61,830 nucleotides of DNA from Chromatiales bacterium (GCA_026982555.1 JALSGT010000084.1:1-61830); one strand, 5' to 3'. Counted from the first letter of the stretch, positions 12,036 to 24,905 are shown. The notes: a model not told the origin generated them from the letters alone. Numbers and translations are program-made.

Positions 12036-13112
12036 ATGGCGCATGATCAAAACACATCAGGGCGGCGTTGCACGCTAGTGCTGCCGGGCCTGCTGGATTT
12101 GCCACCTGCCGGGCGTGAATCTGTGTTTGCTCAGGCGGGACGTTTGCCTGAGCTGGAGTGTTTCTTTTCCCGTGCGCAAAAACAGCGTTTTTCAGGTGCC
12201 GGTTTTGAGGCGGTGCTGTTTGCACTTTTTGACGTGGTTACACCAGCGGATGTTGACTTGCCGGTGGCCGCTGTCGGTTATGTCGGTGACACAGGACGGT
12301 CAGCAGCGGGTTGGTGCTTGCGGGCTGATCCGGTGCAGCTGATCCCGGACCGTGATCATCTGGTGCTGGTGGGGCCGGAAAGTTTGTCCTTGTCCCAGGC
12401 CGAAGCTGATTTGTTAGTGGCTGACCTGAATACACAATTTGCGCAGGATGGCTGGCATATTGAAGCCGCGACGCCCACGCGCTGGTATTTACATCAGTCT
12501 GATGCACCGAGGTTGCGTACTTACGATTTGGCGCAAGTGCGCGGTCGGGCCATTGGTGAATACTTGCCGGGTGGCGTGGACGGTAAACAATGGCATCGTC
12601 TGATGAACGAAGTGCAAATGGTTTTGCATATCAGTGCAGTAAATCAGGGAAGACAAGCCGTAGGACAGCCGCCAGTGAGTAGTCTGTGGTTTTGGGGCGG
12701 GGGTGAAACGCCAGCGATACTCTCCGACAATAAACGCAGTCAATGGAGCCAGGTGTGGAGCAATGAACCTGTGAGTCAGGGGCTGGTTGCACTGTCAAAT
12801 ACAGCACACAAGCGGTTGCCGGAAAATGCTGCAACGTGGTTAAGCGCCGCCCTTTCATCCGGCGAGCATTTGCTGGTGCTGGATGATTTATTGTGTTGTT
12901 GGCAAAATGGGGAAATGGCGGGCTGGGCACAATGGGTGCGCGCATTCAATCGTGAATGGATGCTTCCTTTGTTGAACGCATTGCGTCGAAACGAGATTGA
13001 TGAGCTTGCCCTTTATGCCTGCAATGGTAGTCAATTTACCTTGTCGCGTACCGGATTAAGGCGTTGGTGGCGTCGAAAAAAATCACTATCGGTTATTGCT
13101 GCGCGGGTGTAA
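12036..13112 (+). CDS. Phosphoglycerate-mutase-like / RpfE-type conserved protein
   Basis: LRADPVQL, LMNEVQMVLH, SSLWFWGGG motifs of this family. Confidence 0.65.
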   Translation: MAHDQNTSGRRCTLVLPGLLDLPPAGRESVFAQAGRLPELECFFSRAQKQRFSGAGFEAVLFALFDVVTPADVDLPVAAVGYVGDTGRSAAGWCLRADPVQLIPDRDHLVLVGPESLSLSQAEADLLVADLNTQFAQDGWHIEAATPTRWYLHQSDAPRLRTYDLAQVRGRAIGEYLPGGVDGKQWHRLMNEVQMVLHISAVNQGRQAVGQPPVSSLWFWGGGETPAILSDNKRSQWSQVWSNEPVSQGLVALSNTAHKRLPENAATWLSAALSSGEHLLVLDDLLCCWQNGEMAGWAQWVRAFNREWMLPLLNALRRNEIDELALYACNGSQFTLSRTGLRRWWRRKKSLSVIAARV

Positions 13113-13646
13113 AAGGTCGCAATTTTTTGGTTACAGTAGAGGTGTTTATAGTTTTATTGTTCCTGTGTTGGCGGGAAACTGCATCACCGAATATCGAGCG
13201 TGATTTGCAGATTGCAAAAAAAATGTTAATTGGCAAATACGTAAATAAAAATTAAAGAATAAGAATATGTATTCGTTGTTATGTCTGTTATGCTTGTTTC
13301 AGGGGAATGTTGTTGATTTTAGAGTTTTGGAGAAGTAAGTAACATTTGCGTAAGCCTCATGGTGTGTCGTCATCGAAGCTCACAAATGATTGCTGGTTTC
13401 ATATAAAAACTATTTTATAAAACTATATAAAGCGTATGCAGGTGAATAGAATTAACCGTTAAATTTGTTATTTCTATTTCTTCTTAATGACCGCTCAGGG
13501 GTATATTCCCCGTAGTTTTCTGTATAAAAATCAAAATTTATGATTTCTGAACATTCTTTCTTGTTGATGTTTCGTCAGCTTGCTGCGTAGGCATTTGAGC
13601 TGATTAATGCAATACCCCGCTTCACGACGAGTGCGGCGAGAGTTAT

Positions 13647-15725
13647 TTGAATGGACTTTATAATATGAGTTGGCAGAACCCTGCTTGTTGTAAAATACAA
13701 TTTTTTAAATGTGCAGCTTCAATTTTATTTCTGTTTTTTGTTTTGCCATCTGTAGGGTTTGGCTCAGGTGTCAGTATAGCGACTGACAGTACCGGCATTG
13801 CCACATCAGGCGGGCAGGTATCGATTAGTCTGGAAGAGCTTGGGTATGAAGAGGGTATTCATTTTGCGAATACTGAAATCGGTCATGAAGCAAAGCTGGC
13901 TTACGCTATTCCACATGATACAAAAGTATCTTCTGCAAGTATTCATCTCCGTTACAACGTTTCATCGTTGCTGGGCCAGCGTTCAAATATCCTGCTGCTG
14001 GCGAATGGTCACCCGCTTAAGCAGGTGCAGTTGACGGACGAGCAATACCGCCGTGATCTCAAGGTCGATATTCCTGTCAATTTAATACAACCGGGTACTT
14101 TGAATATCACTGTCAAAGTAACCTTGCTCACCACAAATGATCGTTATCCGGATGCGCGTACCAGTGGTGCTTTACTGCATATTGAGGCGGATTCAACACT
14201 CACCATTGGCTATCAGGACACGATTGCCTCACTGCGCGATGCCTGGATACTGTTACCCGGGAAGGTCGTTTTGACAATACCGGACAGACCTTTTTCTGAA
14301 GACGAATTTAATGCTGTCTGGGGGATCATGGATCATCTGTATCGCCAGGGGAAAAATATTGTTATTACGCATTATCCTGAGATCGGTCATATCGTCATCG
14401 GGGATAGATCAAACCTGAAGAAGCGGTTGCTGCTGGAGTTGCAGTCAGCACAGCCGGAGCAGGAACCCCCGGACTTGTTGCAAACCCTTGATGATGACAA
14501 CACGATTATGTTGCTGAGCAGCCCGTTGCGCAGTGTTATTTCTATTACCCGGCCTGCTGAGACATCAGCTTCGGCATTGATGAACACCACCTGGCAAAAA
14601 CTGGTGGCAGGACGCCAGTATAAAATGCTGACAACCGGTTCCGGTGAAAAATTTACCGCTTCTGATGATGGCATGCATGAGATACGACTTGCCGATTTTG
14701 GTATGGACACATCAACCCGTTACGTCTGGGCCAACACGGAATGGAATCTGTTACTGGACCCTTTCAGAATGCCTGCGGGTACACGCCCGGCGGTATTGTT
14801 TTTGGATCTGATGGTGCCGCCGCCGTCCAATACGGCAGCATTCAGTTTATATACCTATTTGAATGATATCATGGTGTATGCACAACATCTGGATGGCCGT
14901 GATGGTGTGCAGCGCCTTCAAATTCCGCTACCTGCCAGATATCAGCAATTGTATAATAATTTGCGTATACAAATTATAAATACAGCGTCAGTCAATGGCA
15001 ATTCTGAACAGGGGCTTACCACATTCCCGGTGCAGCTATTGCCAGAAAGCACCTTGGTTCTTGAGCAAAATACCGCGAAACCTGAACGGTTTGTGGATCT
15101 TCCGGCCTATCTTGCCGAACAATTTGATATTTACCTGCCTTCGGCTTATCTCGACAGCCCGGAACAGTCATTGCGCTTTACCGCTGCTTTTACCGCAAAC
15201 TTCCCGGTACCTTTTGCTGAGCGTAAAGCCATTTTTGTCAAGCCAGGCAATACCCTTACTCCTGCACGCCCGTTTATTGCATTGGGCGATGTTGCATTTT
15301 CAGAACTGGATGCGCCCGTTGATTTTGAGCAGGGTGTTATTGAGGTCAAGGATAGAAAAGGCGAGTCTTTATTAAAGGTGAATGAGTTATCGGGCATTGC
15401 CATTGCACAGCTTGTGACCAGCCATGGTCAACACGGACTGTGGTTACGTTCCGGTGACAGTGACCCTTATCCAGATATACGCAGGTTGTTTCTCAATGAA
15501 GATGATGTTGCTTTTGCGGACCGCAATGGTTTGCTGTTCAGCCTGAACAGTACAGAGCCTACTTTGGCCAGAGTGCATTACCCGTCAACTCGTAACTGGC
15601 TGGCGGCCATTAGTGAATATCGTTTTTGGATTATGGTTTTTGTATGGCTGACTCTGGTGCTGGGTATTGTTTATCTGTTCAGACGCCAACGTCAACAGCA
15701 GAGCAATAACCGTCAGTCTGTGTGA
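13647..15725 (+). CDS. BcsB-like periplasmic polysaccharide copolymerase subunit
   Basis: N-terminal hydrophobic leader; ISLEELGY...IP...ASIHLRY...S.LL...SNILLLANG pattern repeated in a second domain (YLNDIMV); single C-terminal TM followed by basic residues. Confidence 0.7.
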   Translation: MNGLYNMSWQNPACCKIQFFKCAASILFLFFVLPSVGFGSGVSIATDSTGIATSGGQVSISLEELGYEEGIHFANTEIGHEAKLAYAIPHDTKVSSASIHLRYNVSSLLGQRSNILLLANGHPLKQVQLTDEQYRRDLKVDIPVNLIQPGTLNITVKVTLLTTNDRYPDARTSGALLHIEADSTLTIGYQDTIASLRDAWILLPGKVVLTIPDRPFSEDEFNAVWGIMDHLYRQGKNIVITHYPEIGHIVIGDRSNLKKRLLLELQSAQPEQEPPDLLQTLDDDNTIMLLSSPLRSVISITRPAETSASALMNTTWQKLVAGRQYKMLTTGSGEKFTASDDGMHEIRLADFGMDTSTRYVWANTEWNLLLDPFRMPAGTRPAVLFLDLMVPPPSNTAAFSLYTYLNDIMVYAQHLDGRDGVQRLQIPLPARYQQLYNNLRIQIINTASVNGNSEQGLTTFPVQLLPESTLVLEQNTAKPERFVDLPAYLAEQFDIYLPSAYLDSPEQSLRFTAAFTANFPVPFAERKAIFVKPGNTLTPARPFIALGDVAFSELDAPVDFEQGVIEVKDRKGESLLKVNELSGIAIAQLVTSHGQHGLWLRSGDSDPYPDIRRLFLNEDDVAFADRNGLLFSLNSTEPTLARVHYPSTRNWLAAISEYRFWIMVFVWLTLVLGIVYLFRRQRQQQSNNRQSV

Positions 15726-15771
15726 GGCGATAAGATCTATGGATGGCTCAACCATTTTTATGAAGGATACG

Positions 15772-17640
15772 ATGAGTGATTCTGCGCCACTTGGAGAGTT
15801 ACTGATTACCCGTGGATTACTTCAGCAAAAGCAGCTGGACACTGCGCTTGATTTGCAAAAAAAATGGGGTACACGTCTGGGCGATATTCTGCTCTCCAAG
15901 GGATGGGTGCGCGCTCAGGATTTTTATCTCACGCTTGCCATTCAGTATCAAAAACCATTTGTTGACCTTTTTAAAGAACGTCCGGATAAAGCGTTATGGC
16001 GAGATGACGAGCTTACCCGTTACACAGAACTGCTCGTGTTGCCTTTACGTAAAATGGACGGAGGGATTCTGTTTGCCGTGGCCGACCCGACACCAGCGGT
16101 GTTTGAGTATATGGATGAGCATAGTGATGGTTTGTATGATTATGTCATAACCTCCAAGTTTGACATTATATGGTCAGCGCAAAACGAGGCAGACCATCAT
16201 TTCAGTGACCGGGCCGTGAATGAGCTTGCCCGGCAGCAGCCAGTGAATTCCGCCGGACAGGTTTTTACCCGCGCACAACTGTTCTGGATATTTGGTGTGT
16301 TGTCGGTGCTTATTGTATCCGCCACATTCTGGCCCATTGCGACCCTGGTTCTGGCCAATGTTTTTATCAGCCTTTTTATGCTGTTGAATTTTGGTTTGCG
16401 TATGTTGTTCGCATGGGTCGGCAGCCATGCAAACATTGATGTCAAGGTCACGGATGAAGAAGTCCGTGCGATCAATGATCGTGACCTGCCTTTTTATACG
16501 GTGCTTGTCCCCATGTACAAAGAGCCCAGCGTATTGCCAATTATTACCGAATCATTGCGCAATATTGACTATCCACTTTCAAAGCTGGATATCAAGCTGA
16601 TCCTTGAAGAGGACGACGAGGAAACCATTGCTGCGGCCAAAAATCTTGACCTGGAAAGTATGTTCGAGATTATTCGTGTGCCGGTTTCGTTGCCTAAAAC
16701 CAAGCCCAAAGCCTGCAATTATGCACTGAGTTTCGCACGCGGCGAACTGGTGACGATTTATGATGCCGAGGACAAGCCGGAACGTGATCAGTTAAAGAAA
16801 GCGGTTATTGCTTTTCGCAAAGCGCCGGAGAATACGGCGGTCATCCAGGCGCGTCTTAACTATTTTAACGCCAATGAAAACTGGCTCACACGGATGTTCA
16901 CGCTGGAGTATTCCCTCTGGTTTGATTTTTATCTGCCTGCACTTGAGGCATTGAAAATACCGATACCTCTGGGAGGCACCTCGAACCATTTCAAGCTGCG
17001 GATTCTAAAAAAGGTTAATGCATGGGACCCTTATAATGTCACGGAAGATGCTGATCTGGGCGTCCGCCTGACGCAGCTGAATTACCATGTGGGTGTGGTT
17101 AACTCAACAACTTATGAAGAGGCCACGAACCGGTTTGGTAACTGGATCAGACAGCGTTCACGCTGGATCAAGGGTTATATGCAAACGTACCTGGTGCATA
17201 TGCGTCATCCTGTGCGCTTGTATCGGTCACTGGGGCATGTCGGCTTTTGGGGTTTCCAGTTTTTCATCGGTGGCGCTGTTCTCAGCTGTCTGTTGGCTCC
17301 GCTCCTTTATTTAACGTATTTCGGCTGGCTGTATACCCAGACCCATGTGCTGGATGTCATTTTCCCCTCTATTATTCTGTATGCCAGCCTGTTCAGCCTG
17401 TTGCTGGGTAACGGGTTATTAATCTACCTGTCAACATTATGCGTCTTCAAACGTCATTTGTATCACCTCATACCCTGGGCGCTGACAGTGCCTGTTTACT
17501 GGCTGATGATGTCAATTGCGGCCTATAAAGCGCTTTGGCAGCTTATTCATAAACCGTTCTACTGGGAAAAAACCACGCATGGCTTGACTAATTTTTTGCA
17601 TGTTGATCCGCGTGAGAAAAAAGACCAGGCCGACGTATGA
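15772..17640 (+). CDS. Processive GT2 glycosyltransferase with N-terminal MshEN (c-di-GMP-binding) domain
   Basis: PLGELLITRGLL...ALDLQKKWGTRLGDILLSKGWV (tandem MshEN motif), KPKACNYAL, IYDAED (DxD), TEDADLG, QRSRW; TM helices flank the catalytic domain. Confidence 0.85.
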   Translation: MSDSAPLGELLITRGLLQQKQLDTALDLQKKWGTRLGDILLSKGWVRAQDFYLTLAIQYQKPFVDLFKERPDKALWRDDELTRYTELLVLPLRKMDGGILFAVADPTPAVFEYMDEHSDGLYDYVITSKFDIIWSAQNEADHHFSDRAVNELARQQPVNSAGQVFTRAQLFWIFGVLSVLIVSATFWPIATLVLANVFISLFMLLNFGLRMLFAWVGSHANIDVKVTDEEVRAINDRDLPFYTVLVPMYKEPSVLPIITESLRNIDYPLSKLDIKLILEEDDEETIAAAKNLDLESMFEIIRVPVSLPKTKPKACNYALSFARGELVTIYDAEDKPERDQLKKAVIAFRKAPENTAVIQARLNYFNANENWLTRMFTLEYSLWFDFYLPALEALKIPIPLGGTSNHFKLRILKKVNAWDPYNVTEDADLGVRLTQLNYHVGVVNSTTYEEATNRFGNWIRQRSRWIKGYMQTYLVHMRHPVRLYRSLGHVGFWGFQFFIGGAVLSCLLAPLLYLTYFGWLYTQTHVLDVIFPSIILYASLFSLLLGNGLLIYLSTLCVFKRHLYHLIPWALTVPVYWLMMSIAAYKALWQLIHKPFYWEKTTHGLTNFLHVDPREKKDQADV

Positions 17641-19124
17641 AAGTGAATCGACAGAGAGCGGACTTTGCCTGGCTGTTGTTGTTCGGGGTTTTGTTGACCG
17701 GTTTTTGTGTCTGGTTGACAGGAAACAACTTCAGCCATGAAATGGCACTGCGGGACTGGGTAAAGGTGCTGGGTGTTCTGGATGCAGATCCATTCCGCCT
17801 TGAGAATCTTGGTCTGGATACACCGCATCTGCCTTTGTATTTATTGATGCCCTTTGCCTGGTTGTCGCCAGATGCGCAAGGTGTGGCACCGTATCTCTTG
17901 TCCAGTTTATTGATTGCACTATTGTTGACGGTCTGGAATCACCAATTGCGTCATCAGGAATTTGCATTGTGGCAACGTTTCCTGCTGCTCATGCTGGTGT
18001 TGTTTCAGGCGCCTCTGTTATGGGCCGCCACGACGGGTGGACATATTGCGCTTACCCTTCTGATTTTTTATTTCGTATATCTGGCCTGCTTGCGGATGAA
18101 TTTTCAGGCGGATCTACGTTCTTTTATTATGCTGGGTCTGTTATTGGGCCTGTTATTTTTTGTTGATGCTGTGGCGTTGTTTATTTTTATTGCCCTGTTT
18201 CCTTTTTTCGCATTAATTGCACCACGGCGTATTTTTCTGGAAGCGCCTTTGAGTGTTTATATTGTTATCTGTATTCCACTGGGTGTGGCTGTGTTGACAT
18301 GGGCGTATCTCGGTTGGGTTTTTGAAGGTGGGCCAGGTCATTTTATTCGTCAACCCGGTTCCACATTTCTCGGAGCCTGGCAGCATGCTGCGGATTCACC
18401 CTGGCTGATTCAGTATGGCGGCCAATGGTTTGCACCGCTGGCTGCGGCGTTTATGCTGCTGCTGGTTTATTTTCCCATTGTGTTTTTATTGCTGGCACTG
18501 GCCGCGAAACACAAGGATCACCTGAAAGTCAGTCTGGCATTGATGTCAGTTCCGCTGATTGCCATCGCCTTTGCGACCAGTAAATTTTATCTTGAACGTC
18601 CCGTTGAACTATTGGCACTGGTCATGGTGGCGGTTATGGCAGAACTGAGTATTATCCGGACTCGAAAAGGCTGGACGTTCCCGGCGGTTGTACTGCTGCT
18701 GATTGCGGGGGGCGCATCTGGCTGGCACAATTTTCTGCAAACGCCGGACCCCGTCGTACGTGATTGGCAAAATGCGCTTTTTGCCCGTTTAAATAATACG
18801 CATACAGCAGATGTTGCACTGGGACAGTTTCTGTTTCGTCAGCAGGGTGAGGTACTTATCGATGATTTTAGCGCCTATCGTGTTATTGCTGCTTATGGCA
18901 ATACAGAAAAAATGGCATTGCCCAAGTCAGACTTGTTCAAGTTACAGGTTCGCAGGCAGGTACCGGATATCGACTATATTGTCGTGCCGGATCCGCGTGT
19001 AGGCCAAGGTGACTGGGACCGTATCAATAAACATTTTCCTGACCTGTATCGCTCTGGAATGAAAGACTATCAGCAGGTTTATGATTATCAGGGCTGGCGG
19101 GTATTCAAACATGTTGATGGTTGA
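17637..19124 (+). CDS. Polytopic membrane protein, GT-C (ArnT/PMT-like) candidate
   Basis: About 11-12 hydrophobic segments, an acidic first periplasmic loop (DADP...DTPH), and a soluble C-terminal domain; overlaps the GT2 stop. Confidence 0.5.
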   Translation: MKVNRQRADFAWLLLFGVLLTGFCVWLTGNNFSHEMALRDWVKVLGVLDADPFRLENLGLDTPHLPLYLLMPFAWLSPDAQGVAPYLLSSLLIALLLTVWNHQLRHQEFALWQRFLLLMLVLFQAPLLWAATTGGHIALTLLIFYFVYLACLRMNFQADLRSFIMLGLLLGLLFFVDAVALFIFIALFPFFALIAPRRIFLEAPLSVYIVICIPLGVAVLTWAYLGWVFEGGPGHFIRQPGSTFLGAWQHAADSPWLIQYGGQWFAPLAAAFMLLLVYFPIVFLLLALAAKHKDHLKVSLALMSVPLIAIAFATSKFYLERPVELLALVMVAVMAELSIIRTRKGWTFPAVVLLLIAGGASGWHNFLQTPDPVVRDWQNALFARLNNTHTADVALGQFLFRQQGEVLIDDFSAYRVIAAYGNTEKMALPKSDLFKLQVRRQVPDIDYIVVPDPRVGQGDWDRINKHFPDLYRSGMKDYQQVYDYQGWRVFKHVDG

Positions 19125-20175
19125 TAAATTGCGCAATCTGCTGCCGTTATGGGCTTGTATGTTGCTGTTAATCACTCAGAGTGCTGATGCAAGCTGTTCG
19201 GCGCCCATCCTGCACGGATTCAATTTTCTACAGGACAGGCAGACTGCGCTGGACTCACCAAAGGTTTGCCAGTCGCTTCAGAAACTTCATCGAACCGGTG
19301 CCAACTCTGTTGCTTTTATCCCTTTTATGAAACAGGAGAGCCCGCAAACAACGAACCTGTTTTTGGCTGACAATGTATCTGATGAGGAACTGATTGCAGG
19401 AATACGTGAAGCAAAACGCCAGGGTCTGCATGTTGTTGTCAAGCCTCAATTGCTGGTCAGCGGCTCCTGGGCTGGCCGGATTAAACTGGCGACAGATGCG
19501 GATGAGCAAATCTGGTTCACACGGTATATTGCACATTTAGCCCACTATGCCAGGATCGCGGAAACCAACAAAGTGGATGCTTTTGTAGTGGGCACCGAGA
19601 TGAAGCGGTTGAGAAAGAGCAAATACTGGCCCGATGTTATTAAAGCCATACGCCGCCATTTCAGCGGGCACATTACCTATGCTGCGCATGGCGTAGACGG
19701 TGTTATTGCATTTCCATACTGGGATTTACTGGACAGTGTCGGCGTTACATTGTACCCGGTGTTCCCGGAAAAAGCCGATGCCGGTCAAGTGCGAGAGGTG
19801 ATTACGCAGCGCATTAACAAGCTGGGAGAAACCATCCGCAAGCAAAAGGGCAAAACCGCCTGGATACTTGAAATCGGTATACCATCGGCTGAAGGCTGGG
19901 AACGATATCCCTGGGACTGGCGGAAATTACGTGAGGAAAAACCACGGGCCGATAACCAAATGCAAGTTGTCATTATGCAGGAGTGGTTGATGTCCATGGA
20001 CAGACCATGGATTGAAGGTGTCTGGATATGGAAATGGAAAAGTTCACCGCAAGCCGGAGGCACAGAAGATCCGGGTTATACGGTACAAAATAAACCGGCG
20101 CAAGGGGTGATTCAGGCAGCCTGGCAGTGTGCCACGTCAATTCCGGATCATGGACAGGATTTATGCAAGGATTAG
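19111..20175 (+). CDS. Exported TIM-barrel glycoside hydrolase, GH113-like
   Basis: Signal peptide (...SADA), GANSVAF, VVVKPQL, FVVGTEM (putative acid/base Glu), TYAAH, ILEIG (putative nucleophile Glu), GVWIWKW. Confidence 0.7.
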   Translation: MLMVDKLRNLLPLWACMLLLITQSADASCSAPILHGFNFLQDRQTALDSPKVCQSLQKLHRTGANSVAFIPFMKQESPQTTNLFLADNVSDEELIAGIREAKRQGLHVVVKPQLLVSGSWAGRIKLATDADEQIWFTRYIAHLAHYARIAETNKVDAFVVGTEMKRLRKSKYWPDVIKAIRRHFSGHITYAAHGVDGVIAFPYWDLLDSVGVTLYPVFPEKADAGQVREVITQRINKLGETIRKQKGKTAWILEIGIPSAEGWERYPWDWRKLREEKPRADNQMQVVIMQEWLMSMDRPWIEGVWIWKWKSSPQAGGTEDPGYTVQNKPAQGVIQAAWQCATSIPDHGQDLCKD

Positions 20176-21008
20176 TTTGTTCAACCTATTTTAAACAGCT
20201 GCTGTTTGGTGTGGCCATGTTGACATGTGCAACCATTGTGCAGGCTGCCAGCCCCTGGATGCGCTCTGAAGCAGAGCGGTTTTACTGGGCGGGTGTTACG
20301 TATTCAACAGGGGATCAGCGCTGGGACGACAAGAGTAACCAGAAAAAGGTGGACTGTCGAAACAGTGACTGGTACATGCACCAAAAAATCGAATACGGGT
20401 ATAGCTATTATTACACCCTGATTGCAGGATTAAGTGCCGCCTCTGCCAATTGTGGTGATGACAGCCTGACCGGCGTGGGAGACCTGACTCTGGGTATTCG
20501 GGGGCGACTGGACAAGTATCGCAATGGTAAAAGCTGGGAGATTACCACCATTATCCCGACGGGCTATGAGCGCGATAATTCATCGCGTCCGGGTAACGGT
20601 CGGTTTGGTCTCGAAGCGGGTGTCGCCTGGTTATTCAAAGAGGAAGAGAGGGAACTGGTCAATTCCTGGTCCTGGCAGGGAGGGGTCGCCATTCGACTTT
20701 GGCAGGGACCCCCTGCGGATCAGTTTCTCAGCTACTTATCGGTACAGCATCGTATTGCTGCTGTTGGCAAAATTGGTATGCGCATCAGCGGTGATTTTTC
20801 CTTTCGCAATGAATCGCCTGAAAAAACAAAATTTGAAAATCGTACCCGCCTGACGGATTTCGATAAAGTAAGAGCCGCAGTCTCATGGTCCAGCCGCATT
20901 AATGCGCGCTGGTCCTGGCAGGCCAATGTTGGTCATGTTCTGTGGGGCAGAAACGTGACTGACAATCTGACTGTTGGTTTAAATATCAGCCATGACTGGA
21001 GCCAGTGA
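20163..21008 (+). CDS. Putative outer-membrane beta-barrel protein
   Basis: Signal peptide (...IVQA), alternating aromatic/hydrophobic strands, C-terminal TVGLNISHDW. Confidence 0.55.
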   Translation: MQGLVCSTYFKQLLFGVAMLTCATIVQAASPWMRSEAERFYWAGVTYSTGDQRWDDKSNQKKVDCRNSDWYMHQKIEYGYSYYYTLIAGLSAASANCGDDSLTGVGDLTLGIRGRLDKYRNGKSWEITTIIPTGYERDNSSRPGNGRFGLEAGVAWLFKEEERELVNSWSWQGGVAIRLWQGPPADQFLSYLSVQHRIAAVGKIGMRISGDFSFRNESPEKTKFENRTRLTDFDKVRAAVSWSSRINARWSWQANVGHVLWGRNVTDNLTVGLNISHDWSQ

Positions 21009-22846
21009 ATCCTGTGAAATTATCCATCGATTTTATTTGCCGCGCTGCCGGGATAGTGATGTTATCCAGAGTGCTTGTATTGTTTTTTCTGAGTATGGCC
21101 GTCCATGCGGATGAGCGCTGGACCACCGAAAAAGCGAGTATGGTTGACAGTATCGAAAAGCAAACCGGTTTATCCCGGACGAGTATTGGCACCTTGCATC
21201 TCAACATGCGACCTATTGATGCTGATGTTCTGTTTCGTAAAGATCCACACGATACATCCTCGTTCGCCGTCAGCATCGTGGATGATGCAGGAGAAATGCT
21301 AAAAGGGCGTATCAAGGTATCGGGCAGTTTCACCCGTCGTTTCCCCAAAAAAAGTATTTTTATAAAACTTGAAAATGGGCAGCAATGGAAAGGCCGGCAA
21401 AAAGTATCCCTCGATGCCATGGCAACCGATGGCTCGATGCAGCGTGAATGGCTTGCCTGGCAACTGGTGCATGCACTGGGGATGCCTGGCCCTGAACTGC
21501 AATACGTGCGCGTCTATATCAACAACCGCTACAGCGGGCTGTTTATGCATACCGAGTGGCTCGATACCGGCGTTCTGGCACGTTACGGACTGGGTGCTGA
21601 CGGACAGTTTTTTCATCCTTCAGACTCACGGTTTTGTGGTGATTTCCTGCCGCATCACAAAAAAACGCTGAAAGACTGCTGGTTTAAACTCTCGCCACGG
21701 GATAAAGACTTTTCACCTTTGCAGGCGCTTATGGATGACATTGCGCAAACACCGGTTAAAGAATTTCATGAATACCTCGAAATGCACTTTGACGTTGATT
21801 CGGTCATTAATTGGCTGGCACTCAATGTGCTCACCAGTAATGGTGATACCTATAATAAAAACTACTTTCTTTATCGGTCGGCGATTACCGGGAAGTGGGT
21901 GGTTATCCCTTGGGATTACGACCTGTCTTTCGGGCGTAACTGGGATGCTTATCTACCTTTTCCCGAAAATATTCTGAATGATAATTTTCAGTATTTTTAT
22001 CCTCCTGAGCTGGGCGCACCCAACCCATTAAAAGAAAAAACATTACGCAACCCGGTGCTCAATCAACTTTTCACTGAACGAATGTTGCACTTGCTTGGTG
22101 AGAAACGACATGGGGCAGCGGCAACTTTTGGCTGGTTCAGCCCGAAAGCCATGCGGGAACGCATTGACCGTACCGCGATCAGATTACAACCTGAACGCAT
22201 TGATGATCCCTATCTTAAAGACAGCGCGATTGATTTTTCGCAAGAAACGGAAAGCCTTTGGCATTACGTGCAGCGACGGCATGCGTATTTACGTGAAATT
22301 TTCACAGGTGCCGTTCCCTGGAACCCGGAGCTGGCAATCTGGAATCCGGCGGATGCACCACCACGCCCGGCATTGAGCGTCAGTTTGTTTGCCAGCCAGC
22401 AGGTCTCCGCTAACGGGCAGTATGCAACAATCGCAGCACCCGCTTATGGGTATCTACTGGCGGCGATAAAACTGAAAGATAATAACGGGGAGGCTGCTAA
22501 ATTCAACGTTGAGTCTGCAATAAATCATACGCCCACTGTTTTTCCACCCGGCTATGATCCGGCATCCTGCATTCAGCGCAGCTGGTTTATTACCTTGCGA
22601 ACACCCTTCAAATCACGCGTCATGGATTTGCAGCTGGATTATTTACAGGAAGACTCACAGCGACAGGAATTGGGAAGCGTTCGTAGTGAACAAAACTTTA
22701 CACTTTGGGTGTTGGATGGCCAGCGTTGGCATAAGCTCAAGACGCATGTCAATCCCTTATCAAATGTAATCAGCACTCAAAATATGACAATCCATCCATC
22801 ACAGATGCTGCGTTTTGTTGCCTGCCCGGAAAGTACAGAAAGTTAA
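21005..22846 (+). CDS. Exported CotH-family atypical kinase
   Basis: Leader ending AVHA; GSFTRRFPKKSIFIKL, REWLAWQL, NGDTYNKNYFLY, PWDYDLSFG; extra C-terminal domain. Confidence 0.85.
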   Translation: MNPVKLSIDFICRAAGIVMLSRVLVLFFLSMAVHADERWTTEKASMVDSIEKQTGLSRTSIGTLHLNMRPIDADVLFRKDPHDTSSFAVSIVDDAGEMLKGRIKVSGSFTRRFPKKSIFIKLENGQQWKGRQKVSLDAMATDGSMQREWLAWQLVHALGMPGPELQYVRVYINNRYSGLFMHTEWLDTGVLARYGLGADGQFFHPSDSRFCGDFLPHHKKTLKDCWFKLSPRDKDFSPLQALMDDIAQTPVKEFHEYLEMHFDVDSVINWLALNVLTSNGDTYNKNYFLYRSAITGKWVVIPWDYDLSFGRNWDAYLPFPENILNDNFQYFYPPELGAPNPLKEKTLRNPVLNQLFTERMLHLLGEKRHGAAATFGWFSPKAMRERIDRTAIRLQPERIDDPYLKDSAIDFSQETESLWHYVQRRHAYLREIFTGAVPWNPELAIWNPADAPPRPALSVSLFASQQVSANGQYATIAAPAYGYLLAAIKLKDNNGEAAKFNVESAINHTPTVFPPGYDPASCIQRSWFITLRTPFKSRVMDLQLDYLQEDSQRQELGSVRSEQNFTLWVLDGQRWHKLKTHVNPLSNVISTQNMTIHPSQMLRFVACPESTES

Positions 22847-24195
22847 TGAAGAATACGATAAAACGGCTGGCTGGCCGTGTGATGTCACTGTCTGCAACGA
22901 TACACAGTGACGAAATCGGCCCAACACTCAAACTGGCGCTGCGGATTTTTCTTATCCTGTTTGCTTATTACCTGCTCAAGCCTGCGCGTGAAGCTTTTAT
23001 CCTCACTGATGGCAGCGCAGAGCTGCGCAGTTATTCCGTGGCTTTGCAGGCATTAGTGCTTTTTATTGTTATTCCGTTATACAGTACGCTCTATAAACGT
23101 GTTACCGGTGAAAAACTTTATAACAGAATCACACTTTTTTTTGTTGTGACATTACTGGGTTTCTGGTTACTTGGTGTTAATGGTCTGGCGATCAGTGTGC
23201 CGTTTTTTATCTGGCTGGGCATCTTCAGTGTCACGCAAGTTGCCCAGTTCTGGGCACTGGTGACGGATTTGCATCATCCCAAATCGGGCAAGCGCCTGTT
23301 TGCAATTATCGGCTTTGGGGGCTCTTTGGGGGCCGTGCTAGGGTCCAGTTTTGCTTCAGAGTTGTTTGCCTACTTCGGCCCCTATAATCTGTTATTGCTG
23401 GCTGCTGCCATTCTTTTGCTCAGCAGTATTGCTGTGCGGGTTAAAGCGACGAATTCGAATGCCTCCACTCAGGCGGCAAAGGCGGTTGACTGGCATGCTA
23501 TGCTGGGTGGTCTGCATCTGGTGATAAAATTACCTTATCTGCGGATTCTGGCCATATTCGTTGTATTACTGAATTGTGTTAATTCAATTGGCGAGTATAT
23601 TTTGGCCAGCATGGTTGTTGATCATTTTTCGGCAATTACCTCCAGTAGTGAACGCGGTATTTTAATTGGTGAATTTTATTCGGACTTCTTTTTCTGGGTG
23701 AATCTGGCCAGTTTGTTATTGCAGTTTTTTATTGTCTCAAGAATTTACCGGTTGATTGGTGTGTCAGGGGCAATATTGTTACTGCCATTGATCACCACGA
23801 TAGGTTATACGCTGATTGCATTTTTTCCTATTTTTGCCGTTGTGCGTATTATCAAGATTATTGAAAACAGCACAGACTACTCGATAACGGCCACCAGTCG
23901 CCATGCACTTTTTCTTCCCGTGTGTACAGACTCAAAATACCTGGGAAAAACCACAATTGACACCTTCTTCTGGCGGCTTGGTGATTTGATTCAGGCCGGG
24001 GTCGTTTTTGCGGGTACTACTTTGCTTAAACTGGAGCTTGGTGCCTTTGCTATGCTCAATGTTTTACTTTCACTATTGTGGCTATGGGTCGGTATACGCA
24101 TAGGGCGGTATTATAAACATTACACACAGCAATCGGCACTCACGGGTCAAGTCGACATGAGCAGGCCCATACTCTCTAAAAAACAGAGCCCTTGA
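22846..24195 (+). CDS. Npt1/TLC-type NTP/NDP exchange transporter (MFS)
   Basis: YYLLKPAREA, KRLFAIIGFGGSLGA, NSTDYS, KTTIDTFFWRLGD; about 12 TM; start overlaps the CotH stop. Confidence 0.8.
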   Translation: MKNTIKRLAGRVMSLSATIHSDEIGPTLKLALRIFLILFAYYLLKPAREAFILTDGSAELRSYSVALQALVLFIVIPLYSTLYKRVTGEKLYNRITLFFVVTLLGFWLLGVNGLAISVPFFIWLGIFSVTQVAQFWALVTDLHHPKSGKRLFAIIGFGGSLGAVLGSSFASELFAYFGPYNLLLLAAAILLLSSIAVRVKATNSNASTQAAKAVDWHAMLGGLHLVIKLPYLRILAIFVVLLNCVNSIGEYILASMVVDHFSAITSSSERGILIGEFYSDFFFWVNLASLLLQFFIVSRIYRLIGVSGAILLLPLITTIGYTLIAFFPIFAVVRIIKIIENSTDYSITATSRHALFLPVCTDSKYLGKTTIDTFFWRLGDLIQAGVVFAGTTLLKLELGAFAMLNVLLSLLWLWVGIRIGRYYKHYTQQSALTGQVDMSRPILSKKQSP

Positions 24196-24419
24196 TAGCC
24201 CGCTTACTTTTATGCGACATGCCTGCAACAACAAGGTGGAATTCTGCATTATGAAGTGCAATGTGAAATTTTGATGATACAATGCGCAAATTCATGCCTT
24301 CAATGTGAATGACCGGCTAAACATGCTGTTCGTGCGTTTTACTGAAAACAGGTGTTTTTAGCACTTAATTCATGTTTCGGGTTAATTTAACCAACTCATA
24401 AATTTGCTGATTGATATCC

Positions 24420-24905
24420 ATGGAAAAAGTTAACGTTTTATTTGTTTGCATGGGCAATATATGTCGCTCGCCGACGGCTGAGGGGGTTTTTACCCGGCAT
24501 GTACAGGAAGCCAGTCTTGCCGATGTTATCAGGATTGATTCAGCGGGTACTCATGCCTACCATATCGGGGAAGCTCCTGATCCGCGTTCGCAGAAAACGG
24601 CGCTGAAGCGCGGTTATGATTTGTCTTCACAAAAGGCACGACGCGCGGTTGCTGAGGACTTTACTACCTTTGATTATATTCTGGCCATGGACAGAGACAA
24701 CCAGCAGGGTTTGCAGGCTATCTGCCCGGTGGGGGCAGAGTACAAATTACATTTGTTTTTAAGCTATGCACCCAACCTTGAATATGATGAGGTGCCGGAC
24801 CCGTACTACGGTGGCCCGATGGGGTTTGAGCGGGTATTAGATATGATTGAAGAGGCTTCAGCAGGTTTGCTTCAGGATATACAACTGCGCTATTTGCAGA
24901 ATTGA
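24420..24905 (+). CDS. ptpA: Low-molecular-weight protein-tyrosine phosphatase
   Basis: VCMGNICRSPTAE P-loop and DPYYG. Confidence 0.93.
   Translation: MEKVNVLFVCMGNICRSPTAEGVFTRHVQEASLADVIRIDSAGTHAYHIGEAPDPRSQKTALKRGYDLSSQKARRAVAEDFTTFDYILAMDRDNQQGLQAICPVGAEYKLHLFLSYAPNLEYDEVPDPYYGGPMGFERVLDMIEEASAGLLQDIQLRYLQN

Follow-up and report, generated by a model that had tools for sequence, protein, structure and literature searches.

A seven-gene operon of an uncultured gammaproteobacterium, a likely member of the xag/sfz family of synthase-dependent exopolysaccharide systems

Background

What do seven tightly packed genes, among them a BcsB-like gene, a glycosyltransferase family 2 (GT2) gene and a CotH gene, make and export, and has such a set been described before? 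These questions are raised by positions 13647-24195 of a 61,830-nt stretch of DNA (Chromatiales bacterium, GCA_026982555.1, JALSGT010000084.1:1-61830; hereafter the window), for which a first-pass annotation had proposed an undescribed and complete machine with a part list matching none of the known systems. We report that this operon, its genes numbered g1 to g7, is likely a member of the xag/sfz family of synthase-dependent exopolysaccharide systems working by the mechanism proposed here, and that it probably makes and exports a mannan-like biofilm polymer under the control of cyclic di-GMP (c-di-GMP). The gene set as such was already known, while the mannan reading, the assignment of Sfz3/XagC to the GT-C glycosyltransferases and the reading of an accessory module are new.

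The genes sfz1 to sfz6 were named by Koeksoy et al. (2021), who reported that Sfz6 carries CotH, that an ATP-ADP antiporter and a phosphomannose isomerase gene adjoin the cluster, and that presence of the cluster in Zetaproteobacteria goes with an attached-stalk phenotype (PMC8250860). A "bcsB-like + xagB, xagC, xagD" cluster common to stalk-forming iron oxidisers was described by Kato et al. (2015; PMC4643136), and the two are the same cluster. The xagABCD operon of Xanthomonas was described by Tao et al. (2010) and Zhang et al. (2013); it is up-regulated in an rpfG (high c-di-GMP) mutant, and deletions of xagA and xagB abolish the extra biofilm of this mutant (PMC3609779).

The xag/sfz family is among the most widespread synthase-dependent exopolysaccharide systems, with at least 8000 candidate homologues of g2 at E≤1e-10, and it is also the least understood: the literature assigns no function to four of the seven proteins and identifies neither the polymer nor the c-di-GMP receptor. 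The MshEN, GT-C, GH113, barrel and CotH-carrier readings given below make the questions of the Xanthomonas xag polymer and of the stalk matrix of iron oxidisers assayable, and the window provides a compact gammaproteobacterial set of seven genes, free of SH3 repeats, that is convenient for heterologous expression.

Organization of the operon and its correspondence with sfz and xag

The seven open reading frames (ORFs) are all on the + strand (Table 1; coordinates are those of the whole window), exactly where the first-pass annotation had placed them, and the tight packing that it described was found again. Read directly from the sequence, g2 and g3 share ATGA (a 4-nt overlap) and g5 and g6 share GTGA; the start of g7 overlaps the stop of g6 by 1 nt (TAATG), the likely ATG starts of g4 and g5 give overlaps of ~13-14 nt at g3/g4 and g4/g5, and g1 and g2 are separated by 13-35 nt. 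The BcsB-like, MshEN-GT2, GH113, CotH and Npt-type carrier calls of that annotation were reproduced by profile searches, and its GT-C and outer-membrane barrel calls by structure prediction and fold search of g3 and g5. Profile searches of the seven proteins likewise revealed neither a TPR (tetratricopeptide repeat) scaffold gene nor a nucleotide-sugar gene in the operon, as it had noted.

Table 1. Coordinates and assignments of the operon genes and the upstream leader
Feature	Coordinates	Strand	Assignment	Basis or likely start
Leader	13113..13646	+	AT-rich leader or promoter region	534 bp, 35% GC
g1	13647..15725	+	Sfz1, BcsB-like periplasmic partner of the synthase	Pfam BcsB; likely start ATG 13665
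g2	15667..17640	+	Sfz2/XagB, processive GT2 with N-terminal MshEN	likely start ATG 15739 or 15760
g3	17637..19124	+	Sfz3/XagC, polytopic inner-membrane GT-C fold with C-terminal periplasmic domain	structure prediction, fold search
g4	19081..20175	+	Sfz4/XagD, exported GH113, predicted endo-beta-1,4-mannanase	likely start ATG 19111
g5	20127..21008	+	Sfz5, 12-stranded outer-membrane beta-barrel with signal peptide	likely start ATG 20163
g6	21005..22846	+	Short form of Sfz6, exported CotH-family atypical kinase	likely start ATG 21059
g7	22846..24195	+	TLC/NTT-family (TC 2.A.12) ATP/ADP-type nucleotide carrier, inner membrane	Pfam TLC

The closest described counterpart is the sfz cluster of Mariprofundus ferrooxydans PV-1, which has all seven genes in identical order, with amino acid identities of 30, 60, 38, 37, 26, 37 and 42% for g1 to g7, the last value referring to the antiporter that adjoins sfz6. 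Gene lengths agree with those tabulated for sfz, the 3' end is occupied by CotH and the TLC carrier in both, and the two GT2 proteins fall in the same clade. As in the sfz and xag-like clusters, a BcsB-like gene is located directly upstream of an XagB-like GT2 gene with an N-terminal T2SSE_N/MshEN domain, and is followed after the GT2 by the XagC/Sfz3 and then the XagD/Sfz4 homologues. The window differs from sfz in that its CotH protein is 613 amino acids (aa) long, SH3-free and translationally coupled to the carrier, whereas the sfz CotH proteins are ~1500-2200 aa (1592 aa in PV-1, with SH3 repeats plus CotH), and in that no phosphomannose isomerase gene lies beside the cluster. Also, its host is an uncultured gammaproteobacterium (metagenome-assembled genome, MAG, 73% complete) with no signs of iron oxidation or stalks. 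In the published annotation the N-domain of Sfz2 is EpsE-like, Sfz4 is GH10, and Sfz3 and Sfz5 are listed as unknown (PMC8250860), while we assign these as MshEN, GH113, GT-C and a 12-stranded barrel, respectively.

The Xanthomonas operon shares the core. XagB is an MshEN-GT2 protein (MshEN 1.5e-13) that is 57% identical to g2, XagC is homologous to g3 (hhalign probability 99.3%), XagD is a GH113 protein ~32% identical to g4, and the operon is linked to c-di-GMP, diffusible signal factor (DSF) signalling and biofilm; it has no barrel, CotH or carrier and belongs to a sister clade in the GT2 tree. XagA was considered as a hidden BcsB homologue corresponding to g1 and was rejected (hhalign probability 0.1%).

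Since the operon maps gene for gene onto the published sfz/xag cluster, the system is not undescribed. The view of the first-pass annotation, a synthase-type system of an entirely new category without any described equivalent, could appeal to the operon matching none of Bcs, Nfr, Pel, Pga and Alg and to the lack of a dedicated curated NCBIfam or Pfam family for three of the seven proteins, but the one-to-one match, at the level of description, to sfz1-6 plus the antiporter and of the core to xagBCD (PMC8250860, PMC4643136, PMC3609779) refutes it, as do the at least 8000 close GT2 homologues in the databases, with the XagB label among the matches listed. We consider it highly improbable.

Distribution of the gene set and phylogeny of the synthase

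Among the matches listed in the g2 homologue search (the best 120), identity to g2 was 59-96% and one was labelled "glycosyltransferase XagB". Eighty related loci were taken from GTDB genomes and every ORF in them was compared with the seven proteins. The loci examined belong to Pseudomonadota, Acidobacteriota, Gemmatimonadota and Thermodesulfobacteriota, plus one contig binned as Lentisphaerota. Fifty loci had enough flanking sequence for gene content to be scored: g1 to g7 were present in order in 22, g1 to g6 in six and g1 to g4 only in 13, while six were of the Xanthomonas type and three showed other partial patterns. The gene set is therefore conserved across genomes, and because the same gene order recurs in dozens of genomes the arrangement is not due to chance.

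A maximum-likelihood tree of the GT2 proteins separates two clades with 97% support. The window is placed in the clade that carries the g5-g7 module, together with Zetaproteobacteria, many gammaproteobacterial MAGs, Thiobacillus, Azoarcus and Desulfobulbaceae; the core-only clade comprises Xanthomonas, Pseudomonas profundi, Azospirillaceae, Gemmatimonadota and Bryobacteraceae. The claim that the operon constitutes a complete machine calls for some qualification, as g5 to g7 are an accessory module missing from the whole of the sister clade; Xanthomonas, which belongs to that clade, nevertheless forms biofilm that depends on xag.

In M. ferrooxydans PV-1 a DDE transposase gene is located directly upstream of sfz1 (L036:5575-7335), which fits transfer of the cluster between lineages as a unit.

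The synthase g2, its partner g1 and the comparison with Bcs and Nfr

For MshEN we looked for tandem 24-residue RLGxx(L/I)(L/V)xxG...Q motifs. g2 passes NF053729 (MshE-type c-di-GMP motif) at full length over residues 41-93 (9.5e-16, 57 bits, cut-off 38) and the GT2 Pfam families (4e-22), with MshEN (~40-145) N-terminal to GT2 (~277-565). The g2 family profile matched the c-di-GMP-binding N-domains of PilF, PilB and MshE (1e-30 to 1e-14) and the catalytic core of BcsA (3e-12), and of 79 relatives, 77-79 retain DAED, TED and QRSRW without change. The second MshEN half-site is canonical, having the arginine of RLG in 74 of the 79 relatives. Judged from these motifs, binding of c-di-GMP by g2 is plausible, and because of its MshEN domain g2 is likely the c-di-GMP receptor, rather than Sfz1 as proposed by PMC8250860. 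The host genome encodes 25 GGDEF proteins.

A GT2 synthase regulated via MshEN, as predicted for g2, is known from NfrB/NfrA of Escherichia coli, the synthase of the N4 glycan receptor, where MshEN is C-terminal and the polymer is ManNAc-based (PMC8669469). The NfrB model aligns to g2 residues 39-142, and the NfrA and WecB partners are absent from the window operon.

g1 matches Pfam BcsB (1e-16, 60.9 bits, cut-off 21), and its hydrophobic segments at aa 20-38 and 654-672 correspond to a signal peptide at the N terminus and a membrane anchor at the C terminus. Two cysteines of the BcsB-like family, C161 (31/32) and C447 (30/32; numbering from ATG 13665), are replaced in the window by Y and S, which looks like the joint loss of a disulfide.

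With BcsABZC the operon has in common a processive GT2 with TED/QxxRW, a C-terminally anchored BcsB-type partner, a periplasmic hydrolase and, probably, c-di-GMP control. The sensor is a C-terminal PilZ domain in Bcs and would be an N-terminal MshEN here, the hydrolase is GH8 in Bcs and GH113 here, and the TPR/16-strand BcsC has no equivalent, while the GT-C enzyme and the CotH/carrier module are extra; no match to PilZ, GH8 or TPR was detected in any of the seven proteins in the profile searches. The description of a synthase-dependent polymerise-modify-trim-export operon that is unlike Bcs, Nfr, Pel and Pga is supported by these data, with c-di-GMP gating probable.

The GH113 protein g4 and the likely polymer

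g4 carries a Sec-type signal peptide, read from the sequence and ending in ...SADA, and matches Pfam GH113 (8.9e-44, 150 bits, cut-off 27) and the beta-mannanases 4CD6, 3CIV, 5YLH and 7DV7 in the PDB (1e-24 to 1e-18). Both of its catalytic-Glu motifs (vgtEM and ileiG) align with those of AaManA (4CD6/3CIV; GH113, clan GH-A TIM barrel).

Couturier et al. (2022) expressed the GH113 proteins of X. campestris ATCC 33913 and X. citri and found them to be endo-beta-1,4-mannanases of clade 2 that release M3/M4 and act best on glucomannan (PMC9032380). Each of the three Xanthomonas genomes that we searched has exactly one GH113 gene, which is in the xag locus, and the assayed enzymes (AAM39996.1 and AJZ27962.1) would then be XagD. 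Moreover, the DSF-induced mannanase ManA disperses Xanthomonas biofilm (PMC8042644), and the host genome of the window has a GMP/PMI enzyme (700 bits) away from the operon. Because of the single Xanthomonas GH113 in xag, its measured mannanase activity, ManA, the phosphomannose isomerase beside sfz in Zetaproteobacteria (PMC8250860) and the GMP/PMI enzyme, we are on balance inclined to predict a beta-1,4-mannan or glucomannan backbone for the polymer. According to a 2019 review, what kind of polymer xag makes "remains to be established" (PMC8042644), and our literature search found no later paper that settles it.

The same evidence bears on whether the operon is instead a divergent cellulose or beta-glucan synthase system, i.e. 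a Bcs variant in which the GH113 has drifted to a glucan substrate. The BcsB Pfam match, BcsA as the nearest solved relative of the GT2 core and the JGI labels "cellulose synthase/PGA synthase-like" on relatives would agree with this, as would the preference of the Xanthomonas clade-2 GH113 for glucomannan, which contains glucose. However, every characterised GH113 cleaves beta-mannosidic bonds (PMC9032380), the PilZ domain, the GH8 BcsZ and BcsC are all missing, the identity to BcsA is low (E only 1e-12 across the GT core), and Ferriphaselus has a separate, complete bcsABCZ beside its xag-like cluster (PMC4643136). A Bcs variant is accordingly improbable, and we keep to a mannan-like product in what follows.

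The GT-C protein g3

The two proteins without any family, g3 and g5, were folded with AlphaFold2 using alignments built from the related loci, and the models were searched with Foldseek. The g3 model is of high confidence (pLDDT 92.3, pTM 0.91), and its top matches are all GT-C enzymes: AftA, DPY19, ArnT (TMq 0.60), STT3/PglB, ALG9 and PMT. As marks of GT-C we took a membrane fold, an acidic position conserved in periplasmic loop 1 and a sugar donor linked to lipid phosphate; acidic positions in the relatives of g3 are E56 (87%), D159 (96%) and D177 (93%). The model thus suggests that Sfz3/XagC is a GT-C enzyme, an assignment that is new in this analysis.

In Xanthomonas arboricola a small GT2 gene (279 aa; L066:7944-8783) is located ~1.2 kb upstream of xagB, and it could encode a polyprenyl-phosphate sugar synthase supplying XagC.

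The accessory genes g5 to g7

g5 was modelled as a barrel of 12 strands (pLDDT 83.9) and has a Sec-type signal peptide, as read from the sequence; Cys77 and Cys109 are invariant. In the fold search it came closest to the COG4313 outer-membrane channel 4RL8 (TM 0.70-0.76, E 1.6e-10) and to FapF, with BcsC only at rank 45-46 (TM 0.36-0.38).

g6 has a Sec-type signal peptide read from ATG 21059, MLSRVLVLFFLSMAVHA, and matches Pfam CotH (1.3e-56, 193 bits, cut-off 23.8) and Bacillus cereus CotH, 5JD9 (4e-22), with the NxDxxxxNY (NGDxxxxNY) and IPWDYDxxxGR (IPWDYDxxFGR) segments kept; the catalytic residues of CotH we take to be those assigned by Nguyen et al. (2016). The C-terminal ~180 aa of g6 (aa 431-613, 183 aa) gave no Pfam match.

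g7 matches Pfam TLC (3.6e-9), as do all 26 members of the g7 family (best 5e-19), and among solved structures the profile of this family hits the ADP,ATP carriers 9J3N (1e-30, profile positions 12-428 of 433) and 9J3J. By this full-length homology to ATP/ADP carriers g7 is predicted to be a nucleotide carrier, its substrate and direction being predictions as well.

The three genes behave as one unit. g5 and g6 are jointly present in 28 of the 50 loci and jointly missing from the other 22, and g7 occurs only with g6, in 22 of the 28 g6 loci. Seven genomes that have a cluster CotH and no adjacent carrier all encode a carrier of the g7 family elsewhere (7/7), and among 15 genomes such a carrier was found in nine of nine with CotH versus two of six without. 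In 301 evenly sampled Pseudomonadota genomes CotH was present in 24, and a carrier lay within ~2 kb of it in 17 of ~21 strong cases from four genera, most of them from one genus, so that the independence of these cases is overstated. No polyphosphate polymerase or similar phosphoryl-donor gene was found beside CotH in the carrier-less loci. Hence, g5-g6-g7 is an accessory module inherited as a block.

This module may phosphorylate the polymer outside the cytoplasm with exported ATP, and the most economical reading would be that the carrier supplies ATP to the exported kinase, which would act on the polymer or on the apparatus. Phosphorylation of glycans by kinases has counterparts in the Golgi enzymes Fam20B and POMK. 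In the fuller version a polysaccharide synthase is equipped with a device for phosphorylation outside the cytoplasm: the NTT-type carrier would swap ATP and ADP, CotH would phosphorylate a mannan-type polymer or an apparatus protein, and the barrel would pass the product. This is a speculative proposal that we regard as rather doubtful. As far as we are aware the Gram-negative periplasm is generally taken to be ATP-free, and such a device would, if true, represent ATP-dependent chemistry in that compartment. It would also explain the pairing of CotH with a polyphosphate polymerase in the Pel loci of Gram-positive bacteria, which have accessory cotH, poly-phosphate polymerase and DUF4956 genes (Whitfield et al. 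2020; PMC7112168). There too a CotH gene on a synthase-dependent operon stands beside a membrane protein possibly delivering a phosphoryl donor outside the cytoplasm, but the synthase is PelF/G and the putative supplier is a polyphosphate polymerase, not an NTT carrier.

What passes through the barrel is a separate matter. We know of no exopolysaccharide porin outside the range of 16-18 strands. Since the barrel is small, and since it is absent from the polymer-making Xanthomonas clade, a role for g5 as polymer pore is doubtful. Given that polymer production in this clade needs no g5, the barrel may instead be dedicated to CotH or to modified polymer and not act as a general glycan pore. Its likeness to FapF fits either role.

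These features also touch on the idea that the product, instead of being a released exopolysaccharide, stays bound to the cell as a glycoconjugate of the holdfast or stalk-matrix type, with the GT-C enzyme as ligase to a lipid or protein anchor and g5 secreting CotH and not glycan. The GT-C fold includes ligases and oligosaccharyltransferases, the polypeptide exporter FapF is among the g5 fold matches, g5 always accompanies g6 and not the synthase core, the zetaproteobacterial cluster tracks attached stalks (PMC8250860), and Sfz6 has SH3 wall-binding repeats. On the other hand, no acceptor is identifiable from the sequences, xag mutants affect the biofilm matrix generally (PMC3609779), and the cluster is common in taxa that are not known to form stalks (Thiobacillus, Desulfobulbaceae, Azoarcus and Ectothiorhodospiraceae). 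We consider this alternative unlikely relative to an exported biofilm polymer.

Two further observations concern CotH and the carrier. Ferriphaselus sp. R-1 (L037) has two CotH genes, one of them in a 1493-aa frame, and a carrier homologue (491 bits) away from its sfb cluster (G011:C8:13300-14286, C3:207933-208955 and C4:151585-152916), in contrast to the literature statement that stalk-forming Betaproteobacteria have no sfz6 homologue. In four genomes, probably of Mariprofundus (G062, G222, G026 and G042), several CotH-adjacent carrier matches have one in-frame TGA in their span, likely because the profile reaches upstream of the true start.

Proposed mechanism and points that weigh against it

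In the mechanism that we propose, c-di-GMP would bind the MshEN domain and its motif in the inner-membrane protein g2 and activate it, by analogy with NfrB and BcsA. The synthase, which has the BcsA-type motifs (DxED/TED/QRSRW), would polymerise a beta-linked chain from a nucleotide sugar and thread it across the inner membrane; we lean slightly towards GDP-mannose, possibly with UDP-glucose, as the donor, which would give the beta-1,4-mannan or glucomannan backbone. The membrane-anchored g1 would take the chain in the periplasm, g3, given its predicted fold, would modify or anchor it at the periplasmic face using a polyprenyl-phosphate-linked donor, and the exported g4 would trim or release chains, as BcsZ, PslG and AlgL do in other systems. 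Tentatively, g5 to g7 might act on the product outside the cytoplasm, through ATP-fed phosphorylation and passage of the polymer or CotH through the barrel.

Several points weigh against this scheme. The first MshEN half-site of g2 reads PLG and not RLG (in the family R in 35/79, P in 26/79, other residues in the rest), and the affinity for c-di-GMP may therefore be altered or lost. The kinship of g1 with BcsB is based on the 135 residues at its N terminus, and in comparison with the solved BcsB structure it is marginal, the g1 family profile matching 4HG6_B weakly (E 0.01). The operon contains no polyprenyl-phosphate sugar synthase for the GT-C enzyme, and the 12-stranded g5 is smaller than known exopolysaccharide porins and missing from the polymer-making Xanthomonas clade. 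As to the polymer, the specificity of g4 is extrapolated from enzymes that are ~32% identical, the identification of the assayed enzymes with XagD rests on single-copy GH113 in other Xanthomonas species, and the literature on the family consists of mutant biofilm phenotypes only, the polymer never having been isolated.

Leader and flanking regions

The AT-rich leader of ~530 bp noted by the first-pass annotation is present upstream of g1, and its GC content (35%) is lower than that of the operon (48%, 0.479) and of the remainder of the window (50%, 0.499). The possibility that the operon is a horizontally acquired island was examined by composition and rejected, as 0.479 versus 0.499 gives no signal. 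There was no Rfam match at E≤1 in 12900-13900, and therefore no c-di-GMP riboswitch in the leader; promoter and terminator scans performed no better than on shuffled sequence. The leader aligns only with that of one near-identical relative (L001), not with those of L002-L004, and no conserved regulatory element can therefore be called.

The flanking genes (queA, a 358-aa ORF, a low-molecular-weight phosphotyrosine phosphatase gene and rne, encoding RNase E) are syntenic only in L001, and therefore the seven genes form the unit and the phosphatase is outside the system. The phosphatase gene (24411-24905; Pfam LMWPc 9e-41) starts 215 bp after the operon and is probably unrelated to it. The 358-aa ORF (12036-13112), between queA and the leader, belongs to no Pfam family and among the 80 loci occurs only in L001. 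Finally, the leader contains a perfect 14-bp palindrome, GGGGTATATTCCCC, at 13498-13511, ~150 bp upstream of g1 and with one change in L001, which is a possible candidate operator.

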